Positions 3,673-63,463 of a stretch of 64,000 nucleotides of DNA are shown here, piece by piece (positions within the stretch are counted from its first letter, which is position 1; every line of letters begins with the position of its first letter). Origin of the DNA: a virus (lineage: Duplodnaviria; Heunggongvirae; Uroviricota; Caudoviricetes). The stretch covers positions 19,562 to 83,561 of the IMG/VR virus record IMGVR_UViG_3300028887_000096; one strand, given 5' to 3'. The notes beneath the pieces were generated by a model. The model saw only the letters and a program-made list of their open reading frames with translations. It ran no database searches and was not told the origin of the DNA. A program made the translations under genes and the position numbers.

Positions 3673-3688
3673 TTTTTTGCTATATTTC
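3673..3688 (+). promoter_or_regulatory. Extended -10-like promoter motif TTTTTTGCTATATTTC
   Basis: Ends about 7 nt before the rtcB ATG. Confidence 0.6.
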
Positions 3689-3695
3689 TTGCATT

Positions 3696-4901
3696 ATGAT
3701 AGAAATTCCGGGAAAATACTGTACGGCGAAGGTCTATACCGACAATGTCGAGGAGGCCGCGCTTAAACAGATAATGAACTTGATGAACCAGCCGTTTGCG
3801 GCGGGTTCCAACTGCGCAATCATGCCCGACTGCCACGCGGGCGTGGGTTGCGTTATCGGCCTCACAGCAAAGATTACCGACAAGGTGGTCCCGAACCTGG
3901 TGGGGGTGGATATCGGGTGTTCTATGCTTGTCCTCAAAGTGGACAAGTCGTTCGCGTTCGACCTGAAGCAGGTGGACAAGATTTGGCACCGCGACATCCC
4001 GTCCGGCATGAACCACCGCAAGTCCAAGCACAAGTATGCCGACAAGGCTGACCTCGAAAACATGATAGCCCCGGTGAACGTGGACAAGCTGAAACTGTCC
4101 ATCGGGACACTCGGCGGGGGCAACCACTTCGGCGAAATCAACGTAGATGATGCGGGCAACCATTACATCGTCATCCACTCCGGTTCCCGGCACCTCGGCA
4201 TCGAGGTATGCCGCTATTACCAGGACCTCGCTATCAAGTATCACCGCAACGACCGTGCGGCGATGCAGGATGCCATCAAGCAGCTGAAGAAGGCTGGCCG
4301 CGAGCGCGAAATCGAGGAAACCTTGCAGAAGATGAACGCGGACCGTCCGGCAATCCCGAACGAGCTCGCCTATCTCGAAGGCGCCCTCATGGAAGACTAC
4401 CTGCATGACATGAAGATTGCGCAGGAGTTTGCCATCTGGAACCGCGAGGCAATGATGGACGTGTTGGTTGACGGCCTGGGTATCAAGCCAAGGTATGTGC
4501 TGGATAAGTGGTGTACCATGCACAATTACGTTGACTTGGAACATAGAATTTTGCGCAAGGGAGCAATCTCATTGCAGAAAGATGAGATTGCACTAATTCC
4601 GATGAACATGAGGGATGGTTCCCTTATCGTCCGCGGCAAGGGCAACTCCGACTGGAACTGTTCCGGTCCGCACGGTGCCGGCCGTCTCATGTCCCGTTCC
4701 AAGGCCAAGGAGACGCTCAGGATGGAAGACTTCAAGGCTTCCATGGAAGGCATTTATACGACCTGCGTTTCGACCGGGACGATTGACGAGAGCCCGATGG
4801 CCTACAAGCCGTTCGACGAAATCATGCGCAACATCGAGCCGACCGCCGACATCGTCGAGCGCATCCGCCCGATCTACAACTTCAAGGCGTCGGAGGGATA
4901 A
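3696..4901 (+). CDS. rtcB: RNA-splicing ligase RtcB
   Basis: PDCHAGVGCVIG, GGGNHFGE, HSGSRHLG, HNY and GPHGAGR motifs typical of RtcB. The promoter motif ends 7 nt before the ATG. Confidence 0.85.
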   Translation: MIEIPGKYCTAKVYTDNVEEAALKQIMNLMNQPFAAGSNCAIMPDCHAGVGCVIGLTAKITDKVVPNLVGVDIGCSMLVLKVDKSFAFDLKQVDKIWHRDIPSGMNHRKSKHKYADKADLENMIAPVNVDKLKLSIGTLGGGNHFGEINVDDAGNHYIVIHSGSRHLGIEVCRYYQDLAIKYHRNDRAAMQDAIKQLKKAGREREIEETLQKMNADRPAIPNELAYLEGALMEDYLHDMKIAQEFAIWNREAMMDVLVDGLGIKPRYVLDKWCTMHNYVDLEHRILRKGAISLQKDEIALIPMNMRDGSLIVRGKGNSDWNCSGPHGAGRLMSRSKAKETLRMEDFKASMEGIYTTCVSTGTIDESPMAYKPFDEIMRNIEPTADIVERIRPIYNFKASEG

Positions 4902-5354
4902 ATGCCGAGGGCCAAGAAACCGAAGGAAAGTTTCGAGATTGTCCTGTTCAACAGCAAGCCCACCGAGGGCGGTCATTTCTATGACCTCGAGACGCTGCAA
5001 CGTATCGCCGACGACATCAACGCCGGCAAGGGGCTTGCGTTGGAGGAAATCGACCCGATTGCGCGGCAGGTCGAGGGGATTTCCGAAACCGAGGTCTGGA
5101 AGGAACGCATCATGGCCGATGCGGTGTCCTGCCGTCTCGAAGATGGCGTCTTGTGGGTCACGTTCGAGATACGCACCACCAAGTATGGGAAGCGCTTCAA
5201 GGCCGCGCTGGACACGCATGGCATCCGCGGCCTTTATTTCTTTCCCGTCGGCTATACACGCGAGCCGCTCGGTGAGAAGGGCGTAATCAAGAACTACTGC
5301 CTGTGCTACGTTTCGTTCGAGCCCCGGAACGCAATCAAGTTACCCAATTCGTAA
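4902..5354 (+). CDS. Hypothetical protein, translationally coupled to rtcB (TAAATG)
   Basis: Protein-like composition and GC3 codons. No archease signature seen. Confidence 0.6.
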   Translation: MPRAKKPKESFEIVLFNSKPTEGGHFYDLETLQRIADDINAGKGLALEEIDPIARQVEGISETEVWKERIMADAVSCRLEDGVLWVTFEIRTTKYGKRFKAALDTHGIRGLYFFPVGYTREPLGEKGVIKNYCLCYVSFEPRNAIKLPNS

Positions 5355-5380
5355 ATTTTCATTAACAAAAGGATCAAAAC

Positions 5381-5938
5381 ATGGAAGAAACAGAAAAATC
5401 CCTCGCTGCGTTGATCGTTACGCTCAAGTCCAGCAGCGGCGTGTCCATCAAGGACACTACCCTCACGAAGTTCAACTTCAAGGTAAACGGTTCCAGCGAC
5501 GCGAAGGAACTCGCCAAGGTGCTTGAAAACAAGTTCGGTGTCGAGGATGCCTACTCGATGGTGACATCCCGCTGCCAGTTCAAGCCGGCCAAGCTCCCTC
5601 TCGAAGACTATAAGATTTACCTTGACGTCACGTTCGGGACCGAGCTCGAAACTGTCGCCACGTTCAGCGCACAGCTTCGCAGCGTGAGCTTCCGCCACAC
5701 GGTCAAGGATGTCGGCGATGGCGTGGAAGATACCGTTGACGCCACGATGGAACTCTTGAAGAACGAAGACGGCGTGGAAGACAGCAAGGTCCGCCACTTC
5801 CTCAACTTCAAGGAAACCAACCCGCAGACCGGCAAGAAGATCCTCGTCCCGATGAAGTTCGAGTTCTGGAAGCGCGACAGCAATCCGATCGTCTATACCG
5901 AAATCGCGGAAGTGGCGCCCGAAGACGAAAGCCTCTAA
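5381..5938 (+). CDS. Hypothetical protein
   Basis: K/E/D-rich, GC3 codons. The opposite-strand ORF 5306..5950 is rejected. Confidence 0.65.
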   Translation: MEETEKSLAALIVTLKSSSGVSIKDTTLTKFNFKVNGSSDAKELAKVLENKFGVEDAYSMVTSRCQFKPAKLPLEDYKIYLDVTFGTELETVATFSAQLRSVSFRHTVKDVGDGVEDTVDATMELLKNEDGVEDSKVRHFLNFKETNPQTGKKILVPMKFEFWKRDSNPIVYTEIAEVAPEDESL

Positions 5939-5976
5939 GGATTTCATCATGCTACGGCCCGGCAGGCGACTGCCGG

Positions 5977-5991
5977 GTTTTGCTATATTTC
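5977..5991 (+). promoter_or_regulatory. Promoter motif TTTTGCTATATTTC
   Basis: 42 nt upstream of the 6033 ATG. Confidence 0.55.
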
Positions 5992-6032
5992 AATGTGCGG
6001 CACATAGTCGCACATTATTTTTATAGGTATTT

Positions 6033-7937
6033 ATGGACTACAAGAGAATATATGACATCTTCGTTGCCGACAGAAAGGCACACCCGACTACGGAACTGTA
6101 TTCCAGCCTCCACCACATCATCCCGCTCGGGGACGGTGGCAAGGACTGCGAGGAGAACCTGGTTCGCCTTTCCATCCGCGACCACCAGTTCGCCCACAAA
6201 CTGATTGACCGCTTTACCGGGCGCAAGGCATGTCCCGAGTTCACCAGGTTTACTTCAAAGCGTCAGATTGCCGCAATGCAGAAGAACGGCATCGACCCGA
6301 AACGCGCAAAGCGTGCCAAGGCCGGTGTCGGAAAGTTCCGCCTGTGGCTGAATGATACGGCCAAGACCCTTGCCGATGACTTTTCCCAGCAGATCTGCGA
6401 AAGGGCCGCTGAGGCTAACCCGGGAATGTCCGTGGTTCCGTTCATTACCAAGCAGTCCTTCCCGATCTGGCTGTCCGCGCTTAACGGGCTGAGCAAGCAC
6501 TTCGTCGTCAGTACCCAGAGCGACGAAAACCAGGCGGTCGGCCCGGGCATCAAGATGAGGGCGGGCGAAGTCATCCATCTCGGGATGGAGAGCGAAATCG
6601 AGCTCGTGGTGAAGAATGTCGGGGAATATCTCAAAGGCAACCTCATGATGGCGATTACCGACGGCGTGGCCCGCGCATACGCATTTACCCGCGCCACCGA
6701 GAAGGACCGGGAAATGTTCATCAACACGGCCACCCGCATGATGCGCATTACCCTCGGCCAGCTGAAGGCCACTTACCGCGTAATCGAAATCCGCCATGTG
6801 TATGAAGTCGCCGACCGCTATGTCACCCGAGTGGTGAATGCCGCAATCATCGACCGCGGGGTGACCGAGTATATCGACATGCTCACCCATCCGGTCCTGA
6901 CGGAAAATGTTGATAAGGTGTTCGGAATGTTGGCAACCCTTGCTGACGAGGCTCCCGTCGATCCGGTCCTCGGTAACACGATGCACCTTATCGTAAAATA
7001 CGCGCTCGACAAGTATGTTGACCCGGGCTATTCGATGTCCGGCGACCTGCGCAAGGGCATCGTCTATTGCGCATGCAACGACCTTGCGAGAAAACTCGCA
7101 ACGAAAAAAGACGTACTCGCCACGCATGACCTGAATAAGCTCACGTTCCACGCATGGCGTGAGGTGTTCGGTGTCCTGTTCGGCAGCATCGCCGACGCAG
7201 AAAAGTCCGCGCCCGGCGTCCCGGACTTGCAGGCGGCATATCGCACCTGCACCGACGAAGGTCTCCATGACGACATCATGGCCGGCCTCCCGGTCGCCAA
7301 TGAGCGTATTACCGCATGTCTCGTCGGGATGGTGGCTGCGAAGCTGCGCCCGCATGTGGATGACGGGATGCTTACCCAGGAAGAGTTTGACTTTGCAATC
7401 GAACCGCGCAGGGTAATGTCTGTCGTCATGCCGGAACTGCAGACCTACACGAAGACGCTGAAAGATGCCAAGACCAGGCTCCCGCTTGACCAGTTTGCCA
7501 AGAAGTGCCTGTTCGGGTATGCAACGTCATATTCCCGCAAGATTATCCTCTACATGCTCGGCAAGGATGTGACCGAGGAGACCTATGGCCGCATTGCCGG
7601 TCTTGACGAGAAGTATATCACTGCCACGTTTACGGCGAAGTGCCGTCTCAATGTCGGCATGGTCACTGCAGCCGTCGAGCCCGGGGCATGTTTCCAGCTT
7701 CCGGTCCCGTTCCATGCGATGATCAAGAAGGCAATCGACGACATTAGCATGTTTACTCAGATTTCTAAGGCCAAGGCCATGCTTCTCAAATCGGAAATCT
7801 CCGCGGAACTCGGTAAGCGTATCATGGAAGACGTTTCCCTCCGTCGCCCGACGAGCGTCCAGTTCAACAATGTCTTTAAAGAAATCCGCCTGATTACCGC
7901 CGAGCATGTCCAGAAGGTTCTCGGGGGTGACAAATGA
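6033..7937 (+). CDS. Large protein with N-terminal HNH nuclease motif
   Basis: HHIIPLGDGGKDCEENLVRLSIRDHQFAH near the N-terminus, followed by an unknown domain of about 550 aa. Promoter motif 42 nt upstream. Confidence 0.7.
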   Translation: MDYKRIYDIFVADRKAHPTTELYSSLHHIIPLGDGGKDCEENLVRLSIRDHQFAHKLIDRFTGRKACPEFTRFTSKRQIAAMQKNGIDPKRAKRAKAGVGKFRLWLNDTAKTLADDFSQQICERAAEANPGMSVVPFITKQSFPIWLSALNGLSKHFVVSTQSDENQAVGPGIKMRAGEVIHLGMESEIELVVKNVGEYLKGNLMMAITDGVARAYAFTRATEKDREMFINTATRMMRITLGQLKATYRVIEIRHVYEVADRYVTRVVNAAIIDRGVTEYIDMLTHPVLTENVDKVFGMLATLADEAPVDPVLGNTMHLIVKYALDKYVDPGYSMSGDLRKGIVYCACNDLARKLATKKDVLATHDLNKLTFHAWREVFGVLFGSIADAEKSAPGVPDLQAAYRTCTDEGLHDDIMAGLPVANERITACLVGMVAAKLRPHVDDGMLTQEEFDFAIEPRRVMSVVMPELQTYTKTLKDAKTRLPLDQFAKKCLFGYATSYSRKIILYMLGKDVTEETYGRIAGLDEKYITATFTAKCRLNVGMVTAAVEPGACFQLPVPFHAMIKKAIDDISMFTQISKAKAMLLKSEISAELGKRIMEDVSLRRPTSVQFNNVFKEIRLITAEHVQKVLGGDK

Positions 7938-9368: not shown

Positions 9369-9374
9369 GAATAG

Positions 9375-9449
9375 GGTGACCGACGGGACTCGAACCCGCA
9401 ACGGCTGCCTTCACAGGGCAGGGCTCCACCAGTTGAGCTACGGCGCACC
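9375..9449 (-). tRNA. tRNA-His(GTG) with G-1
   Basis: Loop CTGTGAA. Extra 5' G pairs with the C73 discriminator. One bulged nucleotide in the acceptor stem. Confidence 0.65.
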
Positions 9450-9623
9450 ATAAGTGCCGATGTTTTTATTGTAGGAGAATCGGAGCTCCGGTAACTTGAT
9501 GACAACAATGGCCCGGTAATAGCAAGCCAAGCACGGTCAGGGAAACGACCGCGAGGAGCAGGAGCCAGAATGTGATGTTGCCGCGTACCATGAGGATACT
9601 CCGTTAGTAAGAAAAATTCGTAG

Positions 9624-11053: not shown

Positions 11054-11061
11054 GAAAGTAA

Positions 11062-11134
11062 TGGACCCGGTGGGTAACGATCCCATCACAGTAACTGTGC
11101 CACAGTCACTCGCCACCATGGATCATGCGAGCCC
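11062..11134 (-). tRNA. tRNA-Ala(GGC), unusual D-arm and T-loop
   Basis: G3:U70 in the acceptor GGGCTCG/CGGGTCC, loop GTGGCAC. T-loop ATCGTTA is noncanonical. Confidence 0.55.
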
Positions 11135-11193
11135 AAAATAAAATCAACACCGTAATGTCAATATGCTGAATGGTTTCTCGAACCATTCGTGTT

Positions 11194-11267
11194 CGTGGAC
11201 CGCTAGGGGCTCGAACCCTACACACCTACCTTGCGAAGGTAGATCGCCACCGGAGGAACATGGCAGC
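11194..11267 (-). tRNA. tRNA-Ala(CGC), unusual D-arm
   Basis: G3:U70 in the acceptor GGGCTGC/GCGGTCC, anticodon arm CTACC-TTCGCAA-GGTAG, T-arm TAGGGTTCGAGCCCCTA. Confidence 0.6.
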
Positions 11268-11283
11268 CCAAATTTGTTTTTCG

Positions 11284-11358
11284 TGGACCCGGTGGGGCTC
11301 GAACCCACCACAACCGGCTTGCAAAGCCAGCTCGCCTCCAAGCGGATCATGCGAGCCC
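11284..11358 (-). tRNA. tRNA-Ala(TGC), unusual D-arm
   Basis: G3:U70 in the acceptor, anticodon arm CTGGC-TTTGCAA-GCCGG, T-arm GTGGGTTCGAGCCCCAC. Shares 5' half and flanking spacer with the other Ala genes. Confidence 0.6.
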
Positions 11359-11380
11359 AAATGTTTGCCGCCTAACGAAA

Positions 11381-11415
11381 GAACCCCGGTTCAGTTTTCC
11401 TGTACCGGGGTTCTC
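11381..11415. terminator. Bidirectional rho-independent terminator
   Basis: GAACCCCGGT...ACCGGGGTTC hairpin with T-rich flank. Confidence 0.6.
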
Positions 11416-11670
11416 TTCGAGTAAGGCTAAGAAGAAGAGGTTATCACCCGGTCAGGCCACTTTCGGCATAGCATGCGAAATGACGGCTGGCATTGCTGGA
11501 TGCCAAGCGTTCATTCGAGAGATATGCTGAAAATAGTTGCTTCATGGGTTTTTCCTTTTCTGCCATTAAGTTTAGCAATTTATTTTTCGTCCGGCAAGGG
11601 TTTTTGACCCCATTTTGAAGAAATAATAAATAAATAAGTTTTGTGTAAGTTTCCCGTAAGAAAATGACCC

Positions 11671-14010: not shown

Positions 14011-14057
14011 GATATTTGCCGTAAAATCTTGCCCATAGTTTATAGTTTCGGGGAGGA

Positions 14058-14071
14058 ATTTGCTATATTTC
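14058..14071 (+). promoter_or_regulatory. Promoter motif TTTGCTATATTTC
   Basis: Upstream of the 14125 ATG. Confidence 0.55.
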
Positions 14072-14124
14072 CATTAAAGGGCGGCCCGTGCCGTTCCATA
14101 AACTATTATACCCAAGGAACTGAA

Positions 14125-14385
14125 ATGATTACAACCATCGCGGCGATGAAGGAAAAGGGGATGCGAATTGTCGTCCCGAAATGGTCCGGCGACTACAACG
14201 GCTACTTCAAGGTGGACCGTGGCTCGATGACGGACGAGGAGTGGAAGACATGGCTATCCGTGAACAAGGGCGAAATCTCCCGACAGATTTCCCTCTTCAT
14301 GAAGGAAAAGCGCCCGTCGTCCGAACTCCAGGCATACATTATCAACTTCCTCACGGAAAAGGGGATTGACGCATGCCCTGCCTAG
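14125..14385 (+). CDS. Hypothetical small protein
   Basis: Promoter motif at 14058-14071. ATG at MITTIAAM. The ORF-track N-terminal extension is rejected. Confidence 0.55.
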   Translation: MITTIAAMKEKGMRIVVPKWSGDYNGYFKVDRGSMTDEEWKTWLSVNKGEISRQISLFMKEKRPSSELQAYIINFLTEKGIDACPA

Positions 14386-18060: not shown

Positions 18061-18086
18061 AAATATAGCAAAAATTGCTATATTTT
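18061..18086. promoter_or_regulatory. Back-to-back divergent promoter motifs forming a perfect palindrome AAATATAGCAA-AAA-TTGCTATATTT
   Basis: Serves the minus gene starting at 18055 and the plus gene at 18165. Confidence 0.6.
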
Positions 18087-18164: not shown

Positions 18165-18548
18165 ATGACATACGAGATATATTCCTCCTTTATTGTTCTT
18201 TCGGGGCTGTGCATGCTGTTTGGTGTGCTCACCCTGATGTGCAACAACCCGCGGCCGTTATGGATGACACTTGTCGGCACCAGTGTCGCCGTGTTCCTTG
18301 TCGTGAACATCGTCGCTCCTCCCAAGCCGGTGATGTTCCAGAACAGCGTGGAATACTATGAACAGAACCGTCCGTCCTGTCTTCTCCGCGACGGTGTCCC
18401 CGTTTCGTTGGACAGCCTGGAGTCCCGCTGCATAGTCGATTATATCGACTACCGTGTCGATTCCACCCATGCCGCGCAGCGTCTATGGGAATGGAAGATG
18501 CGTTCGTTCCACAAGGCCGTCCCGCAACTTTCACCGAGGAAAAACTGA
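18165..18548 (+). CDS. Hypothetical membrane protein (2 TM segments)
   Basis: Hydrophobic segments. Promoter motif at 18074-18086. Confidence 0.55.
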   Translation: MTYEIYSSFIVLSGLCMLFGVLTLMCNNPRPLWMTLVGTSVAVFLVVNIVAPPKPVMFQNSVEYYEQNRPSCLLRDGVPVSLDSLESRCIVDYIDYRVDSTHAAQRLWEWKMRSFHKAVPQLSPRKN

Positions 18549-20497: not shown

Positions 20498-20512
20498 TTT
20501 TTGCTATATTTT
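20497..20512 (+). promoter_or_regulatory. Promoter motif TTTTTGCTATATTTT
   Basis: 5 nt before the Dam-like methyltransferase ATG. Confidence 0.55.
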
Positions 20513-21308: not shown

Positions 21309-21321
21309 ATTTGTATATTTT
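21307..21321 (+). promoter_or_regulatory. Promoter motif variant AAATTTGTATATTTT
   Basis: 5 nt before the ATG at 21326. Confidence 0.45.
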
Positions 21322-27735: not shown

Positions 27736-27750
27736 TTTTGCTATATTTCC
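27736..27750 (+). promoter_or_regulatory. Promoter motif TTTTGCTATATTTCC
   Basis: Upstream of the inserted zinc-finger gene. Confidence 0.55.
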
Positions 27751-30906: not shown

Positions 30907-30957
30907 AAAATATAGCAATTTCGGGCCAGTTTTCCTATCTTGAATTTTGCTATATTT
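30907..30957. promoter_or_regulatory. Divergent promoter pair (AAAATATAGCAA ... TTTTGCTATATTTC)
   Basis: Serves the minus gene starting at 30889 and the plus gene at 30963. Confidence 0.6.
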
Positions 30958-35541: not shown

Positions 35542-35788
35542 GATGTCTCCGTATAAAAGGGGTGGCAGTTTTCCGTTACCGGGTTTGATCATCCCGAGGC
35601 TGCCAACTCGTCCGGCTTACGATCCGGCCACTACGTGACGCACAGTTTGCACGTCCGACCGCGCAGACGATTTCGCTACCAGGGGAGGAGCTAATGCCTG
35701 CCGTCTTAGGTTCGGTGGGATGTTTCGGTCCGCTCTAGAAACGGCTGTGACATTAAATATACAAAAATGCCGGCGCCGGTCCAAGCGA

Positions 35789-35959: not shown

Positions 35960-36014
35960 GCGATGAAACTAGGTTATCCGGCAGGAAAAATGTATATTTG
36001 GGACGGAGGCATAT

Positions 36015-37486: not shown

Positions 37487-37520
37487 AAATATAGCAATTT
37501 TCGTTTTTGCTATATTTCAG
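37487..37520. promoter_or_regulatory. Divergent promoter pair, perfect 14-nt inverted repeat CTGAAATATAGCAA / TTGCTATATTTCAG
   Basis: Serves the NADAR gene (minus) and the 37540 gene (plus). Confidence 0.6.
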
Positions 37521-39121: not shown

Positions 39122-39136
39122 TTTGCTATATTTCAG
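39122..39136 (+). promoter_or_regulatory. Promoter motif TTTGCTATATTTCAG
   Basis: Upstream of the 39151 ATG. Confidence 0.55.
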
Positions 39137-44999: not shown

Positions 45000-45060
45000 G
45001 AAATATAGCAAACTGGCCAGCCGGCGTGTTCCGACCGAAATATGGTAGATTTGCTATATT
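45000..45060. promoter_or_regulatory. Divergent promoter pair (15-nt inverted-repeat arms, 36-nt spacer)
   Basis: Serves the minus gene starting at 44995 and the plus gene at 45079. Confidence 0.6.
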
Positions 45061-45078
45061 TCAGTAAAAGGAGTTATC

Positions 45079-46735: not shown

Positions 46736-46750
46736 CTTTTTGCTATATTT
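46736..46750 (+). promoter_or_regulatory. Promoter motif directly after the tRNA array
   Basis: TTTGCTATATTTCAAGC-ATG for the Nif3 gene. Confidence 0.55.
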
Positions 46751-50580: not shown

Positions 50581-50615
50581 TAAAATATAGCAAACTCGCG
50601 CATTTTGCTATATTT
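50581..50615. promoter_or_regulatory. Divergent promoter pair
   Basis: AAAATATAGCAAA ... TTTTGCTATATTTC. Confidence 0.6.
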
Positions 50616-51248: not shown

Positions 51249-51250
51249 CC

Positions 51251-51820: not shown

Positions 51821-51830
51821 GAGAAATCAC

Positions 51831-52463
51831 ATGGCTAATGAACAACCCTGGATCACAATGGACCAGTTCGACGCGATATGCACCCATTACGGGCTGTCGC
51901 TCAGGTGTTTTGACGGGGAGCATCCCCAGTGGATGTCGTCCGGCGTCATAGTGTCCCCCGTCATCGAGGGCGGGGAGGCTACGTTCTGCACGTTCGACGC
52001 GGCCAACGACATGTTCCACGAACCGCACGTAAGTTTCTACAACGCGCTCTTGAAGGAGAACGCTACCGGCAAGTACATGACGAACGACATCTGTCTCGGC
52101 GGGTGCCCCACCTGCATCGAGAACATGGAAGACCTTTCCCGCGCCTGCTGCACCGTCATGAAGCGCATCAAGTGGTTGGAGGAACACCCGGACTTCCGCC
52201 CGAAGGCTATCCAGATCTACGAATACGAGCGCATGAAGGTGAAAACCAAGGTTTCCGACCTCATGGCAGGCGAGGAAATCTGCGTGGGCTTCCATGACGA
52301 GATTCCGTTCCGCGTAATCAACATCAGGCCGGTTGATGACCAGAAGAAACAGGTGGAAGTCGAAATTGAAAGGCTGTTCACCGGAGAGCGCGAGAAGGTC
52401 CGCGTGTCCCCGGAGGCATCCGTAACCGCAATGAGGAGAGCATGGAAGAACGAAAATTCGTAA
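51831..52463 (+). CDS. Hypothetical protein
   Basis: Protein-like composition. Confidence 0.55.
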   Translation: MANEQPWITMDQFDAICTHYGLSLRCFDGEHPQWMSSGVIVSPVIEGGEATFCTFDAANDMFHEPHVSFYNALLKENATGKYMTNDICLGGCPTCIENMEDLSRACCTVMKRIKWLEEHPDFRPKAIQIYEYERMKVKTKVSDLMAGEEICVGFHDEIPFRVINIRPVDDQKKQVEVEIERLFTGEREKVRVSPEASVTAMRRAWKNENS

Positions 52464-53344
52464 TCGGCGATGACCAGGAGCTTATCGCCCGCGGGAAGCA
52501 AATCTGGGAAGACGCCAAGAAGGCGCCGCTCGAAAACAAGGAGGAAGGCAAGGATGTCGTGGGTGAAGGCGACCCGAGGCTGATTGCCCGCTATCTCGCA
52601 TTTTCCGCATTATCGTGCAACTGGGAAGGACAGGTTCTGAACGGACTGTTCGGCATATTCCGTCATCTCTGCAAGCCGGCAGACGACCTGGTCCATGCGC
52701 GTCTCGACAAGATCGGGGACAGGCATGACGATGGCAGGTACTGGGACCATGCGTTTTGGATGATGGCCTTCTGCGAGGACAACTGGCCGGCTATCCAGGC
52801 GGACTGGAACCGTCGCCAGGCGGAAGAAAAGAAGAAGCGGGAAGCCAACGCCGCGAAATGCAGGGAATACAACGAAAAGTATGTCCGCTACATCATCAAG
52901 CCGTCCAAGCTGACCGGCGAGTATTACGCAAGCCGGTTATGTACCGAAAAGAAGACTGACGCGGAAGTCAACGAAATTATTGCGGAGTCCCATGACCGTA
53001 AGCTCTACAAGAACCGCGCCGAGGCCGAACAGGCCTGCAAGGAGGCCATGGATGCCGAGCGCAACCCGCGCATGATTGGCGCCCGTATCGACACCTATGT
53101 CGGCCATGCCATCAAGGACCCGCATAACGCGAAGTTCCGCGAAGACAATATTGCCAAGCTCAAGAAGATGATGGGGCGGAACAAGGACGCCGATGCAGCA
53201 ATCGAGAAGTCGCTCGTCTATATCAACGCCTTTGTTGAATATTACACGACGCTCGAAGCAATCAACCCGGAACTGGAATCGGTCGATTCATGCAGCGGGC
53301 TCCGTCATGACGACAACACGCCGTTTGAAGACGATTTCGACTGA
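52442..53344 (+). CDS. Hypothetical protein
   Basis: Overlaps the upstream gene by 22 nt. Confidence 0.55.
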   Translation: MEERKFVIGDDQELIARGKQIWEDAKKAPLENKEEGKDVVGEGDPRLIARYLAFSALSCNWEGQVLNGLFGIFRHLCKPADDLVHARLDKIGDRHDDGRYWDHAFWMMAFCEDNWPAIQADWNRRQAEEKKKREANAAKCREYNEKYVRYIIKPSKLTGEYYASRLCTEKKTDAEVNEIIAESHDRKLYKNRAEAEQACKEAMDAERNPRMIGARIDTYVGHAIKDPHNAKFREDNIAKLKKMMGRNKDADAAIEKSLVYINAFVEYYTTLEAINPELESVDSCSGLRHDDNTPFEDDFD

Positions 53345-53354
53345 CGGGGGCAAC

Positions 53355-53546
53355 ATGCAGCAACCAGTCCTTGACCAGATTGTGGGGTGCCCGCGGTTTA
53401 CCGAGATGCTCAATTCAGATGCCGCCAAGAAGATTGTGCCTGTCAAGCCCCAGGCAGGCGATGCGGGTCTCGCGAAGGCGCTCCGTGACATCAATTCGCA
53501 GAACCCGTGGGAGACGGCAACACGGTTTTCCAGAGGTGAAAAATGA
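53355..53546 (+). CDS. Small hypothetical protein
   Basis: Start reassigned to MQQPVLD. Confidence 0.4.
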   Translation: MQQPVLDQIVGCPRFTEMLNSDAAKKIVPVKPQAGDAGLAKALRDINSQNPWETATRFSRGEK

Positions 53547-54031
53547 CACCAGCAGACTGTTTCGGACAGAGATACTTGGCAGCCGATCCCGGGTTTCCGG
53601 CTAAGTTCGAGTTCAGACCGAAGAACGTCGAGAGCACCCCCTGGCTGCAGAACGCGAACTGCGTTTACCGGCTCTTCAAGGTATATCCGTCCTGCAAGTG
53701 GCTGGTCGGGTATTACGAGACGCTCGGCGAGGCCAAGCGGGAGACTTTATATCTTGACCGGTTCGAAAGCGAACCTGTCGAGATTTCATACGAGGCCGAG
53801 GAAATCCCCCTCCAGCTGGTGCCGGAGGAAGTCAGGAACCGCTGGAAACGAGAGGCGGAGGAAGCCCGGTTGGCCGAAGAACGGGCAAAGAGGCCATATC
53901 CGATTCCCCTGGTGCGCCAGGGTTGGCCGAAACTGTCACTGACACCGCCCAGTGCCAAGGAACTGATTGCCGAGGCAAACCGGTGGGCGCAATCGCGCTC
54001 CATCAAGAAACCACAAGGGAGACCCATCTAA
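53543..54031 (+). CDS. Hypothetical protein
   Basis: ATGA overlap. Confidence 0.55.
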   Translation: MTPADCFGQRYLAADPGFPAKFEFRPKNVESTPWLQNANCVYRLFKVYPSCKWLVGYYETLGEAKRETLYLDRFESEPVEISYEAEEIPLQLVPEEVRNRWKREAEEARLAEERAKRPYPIPLVRQGWPKLSLTPPSAKELIAEANRWAQSRSIKKPQGRPI

Positions 54032-54708
54032 TGGACATGCTGAAATTCGTGAAGTCGATCGTGGAACAGGGCGGCTATGTCCTCCCCAAGCATCTCGCCG
54101 ACTACTATAAGGACGCGTACAATCCGTCATCTAGGTCCGATTTCAATATTACTGAGCGCGGTGAATATATTGGCGGCGTATCGTTTGCTTTCATAGACCG
54201 GCCCTATGTCATGTTCAATTTCCACCTGATACATAACGTTGACTATTCGTGCGACGAGAAAATCAGGAATGTCTTTGCGGGCGAACCGACATTATTCAAC
54301 GCGCATATCAATGGCGCTTCGGTCTATACCAACTACATGCTGGTGAAGGAAAAGTACCTGGATTTCATCGCGCTGGGAAAGAAATACTATAACATCGACT
54401 ATCCCGATACGCCGGAGGCGAAACTGGCAATGCTTCGACGGCGCGGTGGCAGGCCGTTTGACAAGAAACTGCAGGCCGTTTACAAGAAGCGCAAGAAGGA
54501 AGCCGTCGCGATTGTCGAGGACTTCATGAAGTCCTTCTACAAGCGCTACCCCTACATGGTGGAATATGACCGCAGGTGGTCTAAGATGAGCGGTTCCGAC
54601 CGTTTCCACTACCTCATGCGTGATACCGCCCTCCTCAACGAGATGGGGCTTAAGTTCAACGACGGCGAAAAATACAGCATCCACATGTTCAGCAGGATTA
54701 CGAAATGA
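54031..54708 (+). CDS. Hypothetical protein
   Basis: Start MDMLKFV overlaps the upstream stop. Confidence 0.55.
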   Translation: MDMLKFVKSIVEQGGYVLPKHLADYYKDAYNPSSRSDFNITERGEYIGGVSFAFIDRPYVMFNFHLIHNVDYSCDEKIRNVFAGEPTLFNAHINGASVYTNYMLVKEKYLDFIALGKKYYNIDYPDTPEAKLAMLRRRGGRPFDKKLQAVYKKRKKEAVAIVEDFMKSFYKRYPYMVEYDRRWSKMSGSDRFHYLMRDTALLNEMGLKFNDGEKYSIHMFSRITK

Positions 54709-55595
54709 AAGACGTTACACCCATGACCATTTTCGGCAAGGAGTTCCAGGTATATACCGGCTCCTGCTGCTCCGCCGGATCCGCGAAGCGCACGCTGTAT
54801 GTCGAGGTTACCGACATGTGCAACGCGAAGTGCGGCTTCTGTTCCCTTGCCAAGACAGGCGGCGCCAAGAAGCGCAACGTCCTGGATCCGGGCGTGCTGT
54901 GGCTCTGCCTCGACGAGCTGGTGAAGGCCGGCGCAATCGACCGCGTGTCCCTCACCGGCGGGGAACCCCTTCTCCCGGGTAACGACAGGCTCTATGGGCT
55001 GTTCGACACGCTCGAGCAGAGCGGCATCGACTACTACGCGCTGACCACGAACGGGACGTTCCTGGAACGGTCCCTTCCCGTCCTCGATAAACGCCCGAAG
55101 CTGAAATACGTGAACGTCAGCCGTCACAGCTTCAGCAACGCGCAGAACCGGGAGATTTTCGGGACCGACGTCCCGGACATCATCGACGTGGGGAGGCTGT
55201 TCTCGATGCTCGACAACGGGAAGCGCAAGTTCCGGCTCAACTGCACGATCACGAACGACATTTCCCGAGTGTGGCTCGACAACTACCTGAACATCGCCAT
55301 GAAGCACGGCATCGACAACTTCCTGTTCCGCGCGGAGTATTTCGGCGGTGCGCCGAGGCATATCAAGGACATGTTCGGGTCGATGCTTGGCGGATTAAAG
55401 GAGTCTACCAAGTGCCGGTGCTTCTACGGGTTCATCGGCGGGGCCAAGGTGGAGTTCCGCGCGGTGGATGCCCGCAGGGAGTTCGAGATCGAGCTTGAGC
55501 ATAAATACATCCGCAACTTTGTCCTGCACAGCGACGGTAAGTTGCGCGGAGGGTGGTCCGACGAGGCCGTCCTCATTGCCGACCTGTCTGTTTAG
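54705..55595 (+). CDS. Radical SAM enzyme (viperin/MoaA-like CNAKCGFC core)
   Basis: CNAKCGFCSLAKT (CxxxCxxC), SLTGGEPLL (GGE SAM motif), LTTNGT. Confidence 0.65.
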   Translation: MKDVTPMTIFGKEFQVYTGSCCSAGSAKRTLYVEVTDMCNAKCGFCSLAKTGGAKKRNVLDPGVLWLCLDELVKAGAIDRVSLTGGEPLLPGNDRLYGLFDTLEQSGIDYYALTTNGTFLERSLPVLDKRPKLKYVNVSRHSFSNAQNREIFGTDVPDIIDVGRLFSMLDNGKRKFRLNCTITNDISRVWLDNYLNIAMKHGIDNFLFRAEYFGGAPRHIKDMFGSMLGGLKESTKCRCFYGFIGGAKVEFRAVDARREFEIELEHKYIRNFVLHSDGKLRGGWSDEAVLIADLSV

Positions 55596-55693
55596 AAAAT
55601 TTTACAGTCGATTTTTAAAAATTAGTATCAATTTTTGAAATCCGAAACCTAATTTTATAAGGTAAACATGTTCCAGACAGAACCGAGGCATCT

Positions 55694-56731
55694 ATGTATA
55701 GGCGCAATCCTGACCTCCGTGGCGAGGGAGAAGAGATCCGGCTCGAACCGGCCCAGTTGCTCGAAATCGAGAAGTGCAAACACAACCCGAGATACTTCCT
55801 CGAAAACTACTTCTACATCCATTCCGTGCTCGGCGCGGTAAAGTTCCCCCTCCGGCCCAGGCAGGTGCAGGAACTCGACGCGATCCGCGACAACAAGCTG
55901 ATCAAGGGGGACTGGTATCGCCAGGCCGGCTTCACCACCCTCGTCCTCGGCTACATGCTGTGGGCCTGCATGTTCCGCCCGAAATACGCGGCGCTCTACA
56001 TGATGCCCAAGCGCAAGGCCGCGGAAGGCTATTTCAGGTCCATCGTCCGGGAGATGTACCTGCGCATCCCATACTGGATGCAGCCCGGCGTTACCGTGTG
56101 GACTGCGAATAAAATACGGTTCTGCAACGGGAGCGTATTCTGCGCCCGTGCGGAGCTGGAAAAGAACACCCGCGGCATCGGGTGGGACTTCCTGTTCCTC
56201 GACGACTTCGGCTGCCTGACGGACAGGGCGATGCGCGATTTCACCAATGTAGTGTTCCCCGGCTACGAAGCACGCGCAAGGGCGAAACTTGTCCTCGGCG
56301 GTGCGCACCGTTTCGGCAGGCAGCGGCCCGCGAACCTCACGTTCTGGGAGAACTGCACGATCCCGTTCCACGTGTCCGAGCATACATGGAAGGACGACCC
56401 GCGTTATGACAATAGCTGGGCGTTCAAAGAACGCCAGCGTATCGGGGATTTTGCGTTCCGGCAACGCTACGAGGGCGAGATTTTCGTCTCGATACCGTCC
56501 AGCCAGCACCAGCGTTCCCGCGGGATAGAATGGATCCCGACTTCGGAACGGCTCCCGGAAAGCGGTGCCCGTGTCCTCGTCACCGTTGACTACTCCGGCA
56601 GGGAGACCTGTTCGGCGATATTCTACGGGAACAAGGATAACCCGCAATGGGACGACGGGACCGGCGAATACTACTATGACCATCAAAACGTTCTCGCATG
56701 GGCAGAACGCCCGGAACCGTACAGGGGGTAA
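55694..56731 (+). CDS. Terminase large-subunit-like ATPase domain protein (no nuclease domain recognised)
   Basis: LRPRQVQELDAI...RQAGFTT (deviant Walker A) and DFLFLDDFG (Walker B). Only 345 aa. Confidence 0.45.
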   Translation: MYRRNPDLRGEGEEIRLEPAQLLEIEKCKHNPRYFLENYFYIHSVLGAVKFPLRPRQVQELDAIRDNKLIKGDWYRQAGFTTLVLGYMLWACMFRPKYAALYMMPKRKAAEGYFRSIVREMYLRIPYWMQPGVTVWTANKIRFCNGSVFCARAELEKNTRGIGWDFLFLDDFGCLTDRAMRDFTNVVFPGYEARARAKLVLGGAHRFGRQRPANLTFWENCTIPFHVSEHTWKDDPRYDNSWAFKERQRIGDFAFRQRYEGEIFVSIPSSQHQRSRGIEWIPTSERLPESGARVLVTVDYSGRETCSAIFYGNKDNPQWDDGTGEYYYDHQNVLAWAERPEPYRG

Positions 56732-56733
56732 AC

Positions 56734-56922
56734 ATGCTGATTAGCCACGGAACCCCGTCCGAAGTGCCGGACACGTCAGAAACGAGAGAATCGTTTGAGC
56801 CTTTATTCAAGGAAGTGCGCGACGAGATTGACAAGGAAACATTAACCGCCATGGAGCAATATCATGCCAAACATTGCAAGGAAACGCGAGCGCAAGCGCG
56901 TGAAGAAGCTGCGCAGGATTGA
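56734..56922 (+). CDS. Small hypothetical protein
   Basis: Start reassigned to MLISHG. Confidence 0.4.
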   Translation: MLISHGTPSEVPDTSETRESFEPLFKEVRDEIDKETLTAMEQYHAKHCKETRAQAREEAAQD

Positions 56923-57061
56923 AAAGGCCAGGAAGGCATGGAACCGCCTGCTCAACATCAGGGCCAAGTGGCCGGAAGGGATGGACGCGCTGATGAACGC
57001 CGCGTGGGACCCGCAGATGTCCCTGCTGTATCATGACATCCCGGGGGAGATTAGGGATTGA
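56864..57061 (+). CDS. Small basic hypothetical protein
   Basis: Arg/Lys-rich N-terminus. Overlapping frame. Confidence 0.4.
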   Translation: MPNIARKRERKRVKKLRRIEKARKAWNRLLNIRAKWPEGMDALMNAAWDPQMSLLYHDIPGEIRD

Positions 57062-57534
57062 GACAGTTCGACTATGACAAATATCTTGAAATCATGCTCG
57101 GCGGTCTCCGGTATGACGAGGCGCACATGCGCAACGAAACTGAGCTCGCGATCGGTTCCGGCAAGGATGACCACGCGATTGCTACCGAGATGGTTTCCCG
57201 GCTCAAAGATGCCGGTTACGAGGCATGGGTCCGGGCGGACCATTATCCTATAACTAAGGACTATCTCTACGTTGTCGTGGCGAAGTGCAAATATCCGAAC
57301 CATTTCGACCGGCTCGACAAGGATATGTATGCGCTGCTTGATACCCGTAACGGCGAGATAGTGAGCATCCCCGACCACGGGCGCCTGACATACGCCATAT
57401 TCCCTACGTTGGAGGATGCGCTCGGCAAGAACGGCATGAAGCATGACGAGATTGTCCGACACCGGGGCGCGGAGAACATCAGGCTTATTACATTGAAGAT
57501 GGACCAGGACATAACGAAAAAGGCCGGGAACTAA
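57058..57534 (+). CDS. Hypothetical protein
   Basis: TTG start per ORF track, or ATG at 57094. Confidence 0.5.
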   Translation: MRQFDYDKYLEIMLGGLRYDEAHMRNETELAIGSGKDDHAIATEMVSRLKDAGYEAWVRADHYPITKDYLYVVVAKCKYPNHFDRLDKDMYALLDTRNGEIVSIPDHGRLTYAIFPTLEDALGKNGMKHDEIVRHRGAENIRLITLKMDQDITKKAGN

Positions 57535-60488: not shown

Positions 60489-60502
60489 GAAATATAGCAA
60501 AA
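60489..60502 (-). promoter_or_regulatory. Promoter motif (minus orientation)
   Basis: GAAATATAGCAAAA upstream of the operon that starts at 60471. Confidence 0.55.
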
Positions 60503-62076: not shown

Positions 62077-62227
62077 TGGATGCCTCCTTGCCCGGGTGTG
62101 GGACGATTTTAAAGACGTAGGGGCACATGATTACGGTGTCCTTCGGGATGCTGTCGCAGAGGTTCTTGAGGCCTTGCTTGATGTCCCCGTTTGCGCCCGG
62201 GAGCGGCTTGATGTCGATTGCTGACAT
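62069..62227 (-). CDS. Small hypothetical protein (52 aa), not in ORF track
   Basis: GGTGAGGTAACT-ATG RBS. Tight overlaps with both neighbours. Confidence 0.35.
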   Translation of the reverse strand: MSAIDIKPLPGANGDIKQGLKNLCDSIPKDTVIMCPYVFKIVPHPGKEASNV

Positions 62228-62234
62228 AGTTACC

Positions 62235-62801
62235 TCACCATTCAAAGTGCATCGCCTTGATCCAGTCCTTGATGCAGGCCATCATCGGGCGTTTCTTGTA
62301 TATTCCGGTCGCCTTGTATGCGTATATGCTGCCGTCCCAGCACATGTCCTCGGTGTCCGCGCCGTCCGGTGCAGCTGCCTTGATGTAGTCGATGCTTTCC
62401 GGGTTGTAGAGGAAGTCCATGAAGCGTTCCATGAACGTCTTCTCGTCCGTCTTGAGCTGGCCGAGCATGCACTCGAACGGCCAGTGCGAGCGCGGCGCCT
62501 CGGCCAGGTTCGGAATCGGCCTGAACTTCTCGTGCCAGAAGTGGTCGGTAAACATGGCGAACGCGTCGCGGAAGCTGATGTTGCTGGTCTCGGTCACATC
62601 GTATTGGCCGTCCGCAAACTGCTGCTTGTAGCTGAACGGGAACTCGTACCACGGGACGCGCTTGCGGGTCTCGTCCAGTTCCTGCTGCTTCTTGATCAGG
62701 CGTTTGGTCTTTTCCTTGGTGATGGCGCCGTTCACGTAGGCTTCCGCCTCCTGGAGGAGTTCCGGGTGGCACTCTTCGATGAATTTCCTATACTTGCTCA
62801 T
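62235..62801 (-). CDS. Hypothetical protein
   Basis: Protein-like composition. Confidence 0.55.
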   Translation of the reverse strand: MSKYRKFIEECHPELLQEAEAYVNGAITKEKTKRLIKKQQELDETRKRVPWYEFPFSYKQQFADGQYDVTETSNISFRDAFAMFTDHFWHEKFRPIPNLAEAPRSHWPFECMLGQLKTDEKTFMERFMDFLYNPESIDYIKAAAPDGADTEDMCWDGSIYAYKATGIYKKRPMMACIKDWIKAMHFEW

Positions 62802-63162
62802 TTGCGGTCTCCGCCATGGTGAATGTTACGTTGAGCCGTTCGTTGCAGTGGGTGCAGTAGACGGCGAACTGGGGGAACTTTTTCAGCTCGGACACCGGCT
62901 TGGTGAAGGTGTTGTTGGTCCCGCATTTGCACTGCCAGTCCACCTGGTATTCGTCGTCGCGGAACATGTGGGGGATGCGCTTCCAGTAGCCCTTGGGGGC
63001 GCCCGGGTGGACGATTGCGTGCCGCGTCGGCTGTTTGGGTGGCTCCACGTCCAGACAGTCGGGCGGGACGGCCACCACGCTGCACATGCTGGTGTCAAAG
63101 CCTTCTGCCTTCAGCCGTGCCATGCCTTCTGGATCCGGCTCGAACTTTATTGCTTCTGCCAT
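62788..63162 (-). CDS. Hypothetical protein with CxC..CxxC motifs
   Basis: Protein-like composition. Confidence 0.55.
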   Translation of the reverse strand: MAEAIKFEPDPEGMARLKAEGFDTSMCSVVAVPPDCLDVEPPKQPTRHAIVHPGAPKGYWKRIPHMFRDDEYQVDWQCKCGTNNTFTKPVSELKKFPQFAVYCTHCNERLNVTFTMAETANEQV

Positions 63163-63428
63163 GCGGAGTCCCCCTGGGTGCAGGTTTCCGGCAGCTTGCC
63201 GGTGCTGACGGTGAAGTTGCTCAGCGCATAGACGGTCGGGCCGTTCTGGCAGATGACCTTGTAGCTGTAGGAGCGGTCATGCCAGTAGGTGTCGAGACGG
63301 CCCTTGCACGAGCCACCAGGCCACGAGACCAGGACTGGCTGGTCGCTTTCGGTGTAACGGTTGGGAGAGCTGTTGCATTCGCAACCGAACAGGACGAATG
63401 TCAACAATACAAGTAGGAGTTTTTTCAT
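63147..63428 (-). CDS. Lipoprotein
   Basis: MKKLLLVLLTFVLFGC lipobox signal. Promoter motif upstream. Confidence 0.55.
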   Translation of the reverse strand: MKKLLLVLLTFVLFGCECNSSPNRYTESDQPVLVSWPGGSCKGRLDTYWHDRSYSYKVICQNGPTVYALSNFTVSTGKLPETCTQGDSAWQKQ

Positions 63429-63447
63429 GGGATTGTTCCTTTTGATG

Positions 63448-63463
63448 AAATATAGCTAAAAGT
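63448..63463 (-). promoter_or_regulatory. Promoter motif variant (minus orientation) GAAATATAGCTAAAAG
   Basis: Upstream of the lipoprotein gene. Confidence 0.45.

Follow-up and report, generated by a model that had tools for sequence, protein, structure and literature searches.

A repeated extended -10-type motif, candidate for the main early/middle promoter in a T4-like phage from the rumen

A short motif recurs ahead of gene starts in a 64,000-nucleotide stretch of DNA (hereafter the window) from an uncultivated T4-like rumen phage with 56% GC and related contigs of up to about 0.4 Mb. What is this element, which polymerase and sigma factor would read it, and what kind of mRNA would it produce? 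We consider it somewhat probable that the motif, TTTGCTATATTT(CA), referred to here as class A, is the main early/middle promoter of a T4-like jumbo phage.

Copies, placement and anatomy of the motif

The initial annotation of this DNA had described a genome-wide motif preceding gene starts on both strands. In agreement with this, a scan of the window with TTTGYTATATTT returned 15 exact matches against 0.00 expected (100 shuffles), and four more copies of TTTGCTATATTT have one mismatch (ATTG at 18074+, 30919- and 37498-; TTAG at 63459-). A 16-nt position-weight-matrix scan of the window gave 19 sites at or above 22 bits, and the interval from 14.3 to 22 bits was empty. Non-coding DNA represents 7.2% of the window, yet it holds all 19 strong copies (P about 2e-22). 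Each of them faces a gene start at a distance of 6-80 nt, in either orientation. Gene starts and ORFs were taken from independent metagenome gene calls, mapped by offset. The copies, the variants and the first sigma gene (sigma1) are as follows.

3676..3687, plus strand: class A before rtcB (ATG 3696, 9-nt gap)
5979..5990, plus: class A joined to the T-tail of a terminator-like hairpin that precedes it; drives 6033-7937 and the genes after it
14059..14070, plus: class A before 14125-14385, with a TAAACT (class C) element following in tandem at 14099-14104
18061..18072, minus: class A, 6-nt gap to ATG 18055; predicted leaderless
18074..18085, plus: class A, ATTG variant, divergent partner of 18061..18072; drives 18165-18548 and following genes
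20500..20511, plus: class A before the Dam methylase gene, 6-nt gap to ATG 20517; predicted leaderless
27737..27748, plus: class A downstream of terminator 27687-27713; drives 27782-29692 and nrdG
30908..30919, minus: class A, ATTG variant; SD leader, ATG 30889
30946..30957, plus: class A, 6-nt gap to ATG 30963; predicted leaderless
37487..37498, minus: class A, ATTG variant; SD leader, ATG 37462
37506..37517, plus: class A; SD leader, ATG 37540
39122..39133, plus: class A, its T run being the tail of terminator 39099-39124; SD leader, ATG 39151
45001..45012, minus: class A, 6-nt gap to ATG 44995; predicted leaderless
45050..45061, plus: class A; SD leader, ATG 45079
46739..46750, plus: class A before a NIF3-like gene, directly 3' of a tRNA array; 6-nt gap to ATG 46756; predicted leaderless
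50583..50594, minus: class A; SD leader, ATG 50564
50604..50615, plus: class A at the head of the 50682-57534 operon
60490..60501, minus: class A within a minus-strand small-ORF cluster; SD leader, ATG 60470
63448..63459, minus: class A, TTAG variant; SD leader, ATG 63428
21310..21319, plus: C-less variant TTTG-TATATT (hexamer 21314-21319), 6-nt gap to ATG 21326; predicted leaderless
35756..35765, minus: C-less variant TTTG-TATATT (hexamer 35756-35761), 14.3 bits, upstream of 35164-35592
35991..35998, plus: C-less variant TG-TATATT (hexamer 35993-35998); SD leader, ATG 36015
1705..1732, minus: promoter of the sigma1 gene, TTGGAA, 16 nt, (TTTG)TATATT (hexamer 1705-1710)
860..1675, minus: sigma1 gene, sigma-70 family, 271 aa, regions 2-4, degenerate region 4.2

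Aligning the 19 copies gave TG-C-TATATT-T as the invariant core (G of the TG in 19/19, T in 18/19), and alignment positions -45 to -3 were without information, the -35 region included. The base between TG and the hexamer is always C; the T that had been proposed as its alternative occurs in no copy, and the true variants (TTTG-TATATT; four in the window beyond the strong copies) drop the C. The hexamer is TATATT, of the TAnnnT type, in all 19 window copies, and in relatives it is constant by construction, as only sites with an intact TATATT were kept. The base after TATATTT is C in 14 copies, T in four, A in one and G in none, and the seventh base after the hexamer is A in 14/19. Neither the non-coding gaps nor a generic -35/-10 scan of 1-60000 contained a -35 partner (TTGnnn at 16-18 nt) for class A hexamers. 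These results support an extended -10 type promoter composed of TG, one base, TATATT and an upstream T run, without a -35 box, as initially annotated. The motif fits the bacterial extended -10 consensus TGnTAnnnT, which is a general one and may not be the host's own. Several class A leaders open with a hairpin, with z-scores of only -1 to -3; that of 5979..5990 (+) begins with a hairpin and T run at 5992-6016. Literature searches for the exact motif returned unrelated primers only.

Distance to the start codon

At 53 unique sites pooled from the window and from related contigs, the distance from TATATT to the start codon is 6 nt in 13 cases and 7 nt in six. All 19 of these close starts are ATG, never GTG or TTG, and are the same starts picked by the independent gene calls. 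None of the 53 sites has a distance of 10-17 nt (P = 9e-17). In the window the 6-nt gap is found before 18055-, 20517+, 30963+, 44995- and 46756+, as well as behind the C-less variant at 21326+. At sites with a 6-7 nt gap the promoter occupies the position of the Shine-Dalgarno (SD) sequence; the remaining copies have SD leaders of 18-35 nt. SD use is common in the window, with GGAG, GAGG or AGGA at -20 to -4 in 54/91 genes against a 13% background. Because of the 6-7 nt peak, the exclusive use of ATG and the absence of sites at 10-17 nt, leaderless mRNAs are strongly predicted for the close-spaced class. The initial prediction of leaderless transcripts is thus reinforced, the sharp peak being kept in relatives. 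Regarding the examples given for gaps of 5-7 nt, 18055 and 30963 are indeed at 6 nt, whereas rtcB (3696) is at 9 nt and has an SD leader of 24-25 nt in relatives.

Promoter classes, sigma genes and candidate readers

Genes for replication and nucleotide metabolism lie behind class A, which is found ahead of DNA polymerase, clamp loader, clamp, primase, Mre11/Rad50-like, helicase, RtcB and Dam genes and a second sigma gene (sigma2), which lies behind a perfect copy. It also heads small-ORF clusters resembling early genes. The late genes for tail sheath and head protease and the late terminase operon carry TATAAACTA, with the hexamer TAAACT. Unlike a T4-type late promoter, class A is not found ahead of these late genes. 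The tRNA arrays have a -35 plus TGCTAAACT promoter that shares TTGC...T with class A and has a canonical TTGACA-like -35 at 17 nt. For many class C-driven genes we found no Pfam or PHROG family. With three promoter classes and two phage sigma genes, a transcription programme is indeed present. That it is self-contained, as suggested initially, is less certain; the host primary sigma is at least as likely a reader as the phage sigma, because the sigma1 promoter shares TATATT together with a -35, the late hexamer differs (TAAACT) and the motif fits the consensus.

Both sigma proteins are full-length (regions 2-4). The sigma1 ORF, initially given as 860-1699, is 860-1675 in the gene calls, and its supposed variant promoter copy does have a C-less TATATT hexamer but also a -35 box, an arrangement conserved in clades B and C. 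Sigma1 lacks four residues at the 2.4/3.0 junction and keeps the equivalents of Y430, W433 and H455. Its region 4.2 (VSKAHIRTI) is degenerate, the canonical RERIRQ residues being lost, which would suit a promoter without a -35; sigma2 keeps LSRERIRQI.

Relatives with a sigma of only 71-72% identity have the motif unchanged, and in these clades the 11-mer is exact at the orthologous promoters of rtcB, a PIF1 helicase and a 210-aa gene. At orthologous promoters the gap length is held and the gap bases differ, as at the 30963 promoter in the relative L060. A more distant relative, L243, also keeps class A. It was the only true relative among the listed matches of a divergent-motif-pair scan of GTDB genomes (at least 120 matches, median GC 0.35), most of which are due to chance or are ordinary promoters in AT-rich Firmicutes and Bacteroidales. 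L243 is located on a contig of a Fibrobacter MAG, a weak hint at the host; a literature search for Fibrobacter promoters found nothing. INPHARED contained no near-identical phage (matches were to tRNA only), and a sigma1 query for related loci in IMG/VR gave no match.

From these features we propose that class A would act as a -35-independent extended -10 promoter, with TG at -15/-14 and TATATT at -12 to -7, bound by RNA polymerase with a sigma-70 family factor, most likely the host primary sigma. Transcription would start at the conserved A 7-8 nt past the hexamer. In about one third of the copies this A would be the A of the ATG, so that the mRNA would be leaderless, and the others would be SD-led. 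In addition, a phage factor may shut off the (host) promoters that depend on a -35, as Thermus phage P23-45 does.

We favour the host primary sigma over a phage sigma as the reader, with a confidence a little above even. The sigma1 gene, which must be read first, has a TATATT hexamer plus a -35, and the tRNA promoters combine the shared TTGC...T with their canonical -35; both observations favour the host factor. A less probable, though possible, reader is sigma1 itself, with the same promoter and start site. In this model the host sigma would read a few -35/-10 promoters (sigma1, the divergent exonuclease gene at 1804 and the tRNA arrays), sigma1 would read class A, including the sigma2 promoter, and sigma2 would read the late TAAACT class. 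The -35 of the sigma1 promoter and the position of sigma2 behind class A agree with such an order. The altered region 4.2 and retained aromatic and histidine equivalents of sigma1 fit a -35-less TAnnnT promoter, and the LSRERIRQI of sigma2 would fit TTGACA plus TAAACT tRNA promoters. The motif is also co-conserved with sigma1 in both sigma1-bearing clades examined (B and C), and it is over-specified, with 27.6 bits where locating 19 sites needs 12.7. Positions that primary sigmas usually ignore (C -13, T -8, T -6 and CA -5/-4) are invariant or strongly conserved, a hint that the reader may be more specific or that a second protein binds there. However, any primary sigma should use a perfect TGnTATATT from the moment of infection, which would make it difficult to keep the host enzyme from reading class A; moreover, sigma1's own promoter has the class A hexamer, and the small-ORF clusters behind class A look like early genes. 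If sigma1 were the reader, the phage would have a self-contained three-step cascade from host sigma to sigma1 to sigma2, one third of its middle transcripts would be leaderless and, like phiYS40, it would also retune translation initiation.

The motif could instead serve primarily as an operator bound by a protein, or be a mobile repeat of the PeSL type (a promoter plus stem-loop cassette); its conservation and excess of information would then reflect recombination or regulator binding and not recognition by a polymerase. The inverted repeats initially noted at 18061-18086, 37487-37520 and 45000-45060 are present, and two more were found at 30908/30947 and 50580/50604. Several copies adjoin terminator hairpins, and in L068/L083 a small gene with its own motif copy is inserted within the divergent pair that corresponds to 45012/45050. 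Against this stand the spacings of the five pairs (3, 28, 9, 37 and 9 nt), which lack the fixed half-site distance of a dimer-bound palindrome, and the nine of 19 copies that are unpaired. All copies are directed at genes at quantised distances (6-7 nt or SD length) needless for a pure operator or repeat, and flanks beyond about 16 nt vary among the window's 19 copies. We therefore regard this explanation as improbable. Since arm spacing varies and pairs are rearranged in relatives, the palindromes are a by-product of back-to-back divergent promoters and not the operators initially suggested.

We give still less credence to a reader outside these options, either a phage single-subunit or non-canonical multisubunit RNA polymerase or a Bacteroidota host sigma recognising a -7 box (TAnnTTTG). 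Promoters of phage polymerases are typically very highly conserved, but the large proteins scanned included no RNAP-like gene. TATATTT is similar to TAnnTTT, and genomes of rumen Bacteroidales contain the 11-mer with a G after it; the window copies, in contrast, never close with G (0/19) and have no upstream TTTG signal at -33, and SD sequences are used. Bacteroidota are not known to use SD sequences in the manner of the window genes. An archaeal TATA box/BRE (TTTATATA-like, with leaderless mRNA) was likewise rejected, because the element is 6 nt from the ATG instead of about 25, SD sequences are used and the sigma genes are of bacterial type.

Relation to known systems

The analysis maps, at the level of sequence, how transcription is programmed in an uncultivated lineage of T4-like rumen phages, in which the share of predicted leaderless genes, DNA polymerase included, is unusually high. 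In these genomes the motifs can serve directly for the annotation of operons and true start codons and for sorting many genes without known function into early/middle and late sets; they can also guide in vitro assays of sigma specificity. Class A is a clean new example of an established phage promoter type and not a new principle.

Phage sigma cascades are represented by SPO1 (gp28, gp33/34), phiEco32 (gp36) and T4 (gp55, with TATAAATA); such systems have distinct, highly conserved promoter classes per gene set, and a lone -10-like element can suffice. The rumen phage similarly has sigma-70 family genes and separate conserved promoter classes per gene set, its late motif TATAAACTA resembles T4 late TATAAATA, and the model with sigma1 as reader would resemble the three-step cascade of SPO1. 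Unlike the SPO1 or phiEco32 motifs, class A fits a host-type extended -10 consensus, and unlike T4 gp55, sigma1 and sigma2 have regions 2-4. In the PeSL elements of T4-type phages, a conserved early promoter and a stem-loop terminator are repeated many times and tied to gene insertions. Class A is also repeated in a T4-like genome, at times next to terminators and with gene insertion between relatives, but only some copies have an adjacent hairpin.

In Deinococcus-Thermus, a -10 element placed a few bp before the ATG suffices as a promoter and yields leaderless mRNA (PMC12340547). Class A adjoins the ATG in this way at part of its sites; unlike that host-genome-wide habit, it is a single phage promoter class that also has a TG and a T run and that occurs alongside SD-led copies of itself. 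The closest analogues are the Thermus phages P23-45, whose middle/late promoters are extended -10 elements without -35 read by host RNA polymerase while phage proteins block -10/-35 promoters (PMC5758890), and phiYS40, whose middle/late mRNAs are mostly leaderless (PMC3594737). Like these, class A is a TG-extended -10 without -35, and many of its mRNAs are predicted to be leaderless. It differs in serving early/middle (replication) genes where theirs serve late ones, and its motif TTTGCTATATTTCA is longer and more rigid. The rumen phage also encodes its own sigma factors, with no gp39/gp76-like inhibitor identified, and unlike the Thermus phages it is T4-like, with related contigs of up to about 0.4 Mb, 56% GC and an anaerobic rumen host.

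Copies, placement and anatomy of the class A motif

The class A promoter motif (TG, one base, TATATT), in the form TTTGYTATATTT, had 15 exact matches in the window versus 0 in 100 shuffles, and 4 additional copies each carried a one-base change in the T run. A 16-nt position weight matrix yielded 19 sites at 22 bits or more; all other matches reached at most 14.3 bits, and such weak matches were as frequent as in shuffles. When independent metagenome gene calls were transferred onto the window as a coding map, all 19 sites proved to be non-coding (7.2% of the window is non-coding; P ~2e-22) and all were oriented towards a gene start located 6–80 nt downstream. This confirms the recurrent motif upstream of gene starts described in the initial annotation, with every site intergenic and correctly pointed. 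The motif holds 27.6 bits of information, compared with the 12.7 bits needed to pick out 19 sites from the window, and its exact form was absent from the searchable literature. The (C/T) position previously proposed was wrong in detail, since we found variant copies without the C instead; the remainder of that motif description, apart from one spacing discussed below, holds.

Class A variants without the C
1710 (-), TTTG-TATATT
21314, TTTG-TATATT
35761 (-), TTTG-TATATT
35993, TG-TATATT

Across the aligned sites, the G, the C, TATATT and the T were invariant, the upstream T run was near-invariant, and positions −45 to −3 relative to the motif contained essentially no information. CA followed the motif in 12–14 of the 19 copies, and the seventh base after TATATT was an A in 14 of 19, mostly preceded by C; CA is the classical start-site pair. 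No class A site had a TTGnnn hexamer 16–18 nt upstream, and a generic −35/−10 scanner, whose site count in 20–60 kb did not exceed that of shuffles, detected none of them. Alignment, hexamer search and generic scan therefore agree with the earlier reading of a TG, one base and TATATT with no −35 element.

Five divergent class A pairs are exact inverted repeats, with arms 3, 28, 9, 37 and 9 nt apart. The repeats previously noted at divergent junctions are thus real, but their suggested role as operators was not supported, given the variable arm spacing, the nine unpaired copies and the rearrangement of divergent pairs in relatives, where a small gene has been inserted with its own motif copy. 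They are back-to-back promoters. At 37471–37533, the similarity within the divergent pair is not confined to the motif: both leaders take part in it, SD regions included (27 nt, 85% complementary), as though a cassette of promoter and leader had been copied in inverted orientation.

Start codon spacing and conservation in relatives

At 53 non-identical class A sites, we determined how far TATATT lies from the first start codon opening an ORF; the sites came from the window, from other parts of the same or a very close genome, and from four relative groups. The distribution was bimodal, with 13 sites at 6 nt, 6 at 7 nt and none at 10–17 nt; the other sites were mostly 18–35 nt from the start and showed a visible Shine-Dalgarno (SD) sequence such as GGAG or AAGGAG. 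All 19 close-spaced starts were ATG, metagenome gene callers had chosen these same codons, and the chance of finding 19 of 53 starts so close was 9e-17. At orthologous promoters, the length of the gap was constant and its bases varied:

210-aa gene: TGGTC, TGGGC or TGCAC
PIF1 helicase gene: CGGTAC, CGGTGC or CTAACT
Small gene at 30963: CACGC or CTGCC

In agreement with the initial annotation, the close-start peak, the exclusive use of ATG and the gap kept in relatives provide strong, indirect support for predicting leaderless mRNAs from sites with 6–7 nt gaps. Genes predicted to be leaderless include those of the DNA polymerase (7-nt gap) and an Mre11-like nuclease; in the window, such predicted leaderless starts include ATG 18055 (-), 20517, 30963, 44995 (-) and 46756. 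In the case of the Dam methylase, the N-terminus from ATG 20517 (MDFINSPFPYAGC...) resembles what we take to be a methylase start, and there was no nearby SD-led alternative. Within this gene (20517–21308), roughly 50–60 nt (an estimated 20 codons) are absent at about 21027 relative to the otherwise identical contig L001, a strain-level in-frame indel just 5′ of the DPPY motif.

Several class A transcripts would start with a GC-rich, terminator-like hairpin and U run inside the first 30 nt (window 5992–6016; related contigs L124 4991-, L128 4072-, L116 1433- and L052 1073-). Their fold z-scores were only −1 to −3, and they could be attenuators or 5′ stabilisers.

The 11-mer TTGCTATATTT was found unchanged in clades B (GC 55%) and C (GC 51%), relatives whose sigma factor is 71–72% identical to that of the window. 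L243, a more distant relative with one common protein at about 64% identity, has four class A copies, three of them with 6–7 nt gaps. In the rtcB promoter alignment, the motif is exact and is preceded by a conserved GAGTTTACAA block and a variable stretch. As this region doubles as the 3′ end of the upstream gene in clade B, selection on the coding sequence may account for some of the conservation of the flank. The window rtcB (3688–3698 versus L124 7935–7975) has lost the roughly 20-nt SD leader of both clades, CAATATCGGAGATACCAAAA being changed to CATT. This leaves a gap of 9 nt, and not the 5–7 nt originally reported. The rtcB promoter thus offers a putative natural example of one promoter switching from an SD-led to a nearly leaderless arrangement.

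The 551-nt "gap" before rtcB (3145–3695, 64% GC) encodes at 3236–3622 a homologue of a clade B 170-aa protein (55% identity over 134 aa). The clade B gene extends through the rtcB promoter; in the window its C-terminal part is shifted to another frame, so that this stretch is a shortened or frameshifted gene missed by gene callers. RtcB itself has 516 aa on one clade C contig (L128 6066–7616) versus 401 aa elsewhere, and the EcoRI-type adenine methylase of the window (39669–41690, 673 aa) matches Pfam in three stretches, with a weak LAGLIDADG match at residues 274–348; both suggest intein or homing-endonuclease insertions.

Other promoter classes and the sigma factor reading class A

Two further classes were recognised. 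Class B lies upstream of both tRNA arrays and combines TTGCTAAACTTA with a −35 hexamer spaced by 17 nt; this hexamer reads TTTACA or TTGCCG in the window and, on related contigs, TTGACA or TTGCCA. The two copies are near-duplicates, GGTCAAAAACCCTT(TACA/GCCG)...TTGCTAAACTTA, each with TG and TAAACT. Class C, (C)TATAAACTA, is recurrent and intergenic, with neither TG nor −35. The TAGTTTA/TAAACTA 7-mers of the window are all intergenic (4 of 4) and form two inverted pairs 52–56 nt apart.

Class B and class C promoters
11569–11597 (-), class B, heads a tRNA array
45340–45368 (+), class B, heads a tRNA array
14036–14043, 14098–14106, 19884–19890 and 19943–19949, class C, window
9918/9962 and 20460, class C, L251
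2821/2857, 15270 and 18998, class C, L254
14476, 15550 and 16862, class C, L124

Class A precedes the genes for DNA polymerase, clamp loader, RtcB, Dam, PIF1 helicase and sigma2 (a second phage sigma factor), together with a clamp-like gene assigned by position and primase-like and Rad50/Mre11-like genes assigned by eye from sequence. In the window, class C precedes the gene of a ClpP-like head maturation protease (19943–20497; phrog_94, 2e-17). On related contigs it lies upstream of the tail sheath gene (phrog_23, 1.8e-31), of an operon whose last gene is that of the large terminase, and of numerous genes for unknown proteins. From these gene sets, class A is thus the early/middle class and class C probably the late one, its motif being reminiscent of the T4 late promoter TATAAATA. 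ATG 19955 precedes the called start of the ClpP-like gene (19961) by two codons and is separated from TAAACT by exactly 6 nt; this late gene, too, may be leaderless.

In the tRNA regions, a tRNA-like sequence at 9380–9443 (-) was found by Rfam (43.7 bits) and had no ARAGORN call; the overlapping stretch 9374–9455 matched Vibrio phage DNA annotated as tRNA-His. Further tRNA-like fragments (GGTTCGAGCCCC-type T arms), seen by eye and called by no tool, are present in the 390-nt spacer that follows the second minus-strand array (11054–11443). These are probably decayed tRNA genes. Upstream of nrdD, a direct repeat TGTGCAC-ATT-TGTGCAC with a GTGCAC palindrome per unit (24983–25002), followed by TTGGCACCGTTTTTATTATAAAC, may be a regulator site of the anaerobic reductase operon.

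As to which factor reads class A, we lean towards the host primary sigma factor. Class A is a textbook extended −10 consensus, and an extended −10 without −35 is usable by any primary sigma. The gene for sigma1 (860–1675), the sigma-70 family factor of the window, has to be transcribed by the host polymerase, and its promoter (TTGGAA, 16 nt, TATATT), kept in all clades, has the same hexamer; the tRNA promoters share the TTGC...T frame and add a canonical −35. In the late class the hexamer is a different one, which would leave the phage sigma factors with a job. A precedent is phage P23-45, whose proteins disable −35 recognition and redirect host RNAP to extended −10 phage promoters (PMC5758890).

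That sigma1 reads class A seems to us possible but less likely. Its region 4.2 has lost the TTGACA-reading residues, the 2.4/3.0 junction carries a deletion, and the residues flipping −11A are retained, a combination that fits a −35-less promoter. Unlike sigma1, sigma2 (264 aa, sigma-70 family; L254 10001–10795, IMG/VR 3300028887_003391) keeps the canonical −35-reading residues LSRERIRQI, and it lies immediately downstream of a perfect copy of class A, which fits a cascade. Class A is also over-specified, even at positions that primary sigmas usually ignore. Reading by the host primary sigma nevertheless remains our preferred explanation.

The phage, its host and comparison with known systems

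The window (GC 56%) carries 26 tRNA genes split over two arrays and encodes NrdD/NrdG (anaerobic ribonucleotide reductase), RtcB, Dam and EcoRI-like methylases, an HSP20-domain protein and the sigma-70 family protein. INPHARED contained no close relative of the phage. Several metagenome assemblies contain near-identical contigs, a contig of one relative was recovered from a bovine metagenome, and part of the window is present in a 224 kb IMG/VR contig. Among 5.8 billion proteins, sigma1 homologues formed only three clusters (98%, 72% and 71% identity), and the contigs encoding them reached 417–433 kb. The class A motif also occurs on a 172-kb IMG/VR contig that encodes a tail sheath, a large terminase of the gp17 type and a replication set of the T4 type. 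Stretches of this contig recur at 100% identity in JGI samples 3300037453 and 3300031993, both of which also contain window-identical contigs, and we treated it as putatively the same or a very close genome. We therefore consider the element a distant T4-like jumbo or megaphage infecting a rumen anaerobe.

The only host hint is the binning of the L243 contig with a Fibrobacter MAG. TTGCTATATTTG is an ordinary −7 box in rumen Bacteroidales; GGAG, GAGG or AGGA was present at −20 to −4 in 54 of 91 genes, versus a 13% background, which speaks against the host being a member of the Bacteroidota.

Phage sigma cascades and the T4 late promoter are among the systems closest to class A. So are the extended −10, −35-less promoters of the Thermus phage P23-45, the leaderless middle and late mRNAs of phiYS40 (PMC3594737), which resemble those predicted here, and the placing of −10 elements beside ORFs in Deinococcus-Thermus (PMC12340547). 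Class A is a well-supported example of an already known kind of promoter, not surprising in principle, and useful for annotation and experiments.
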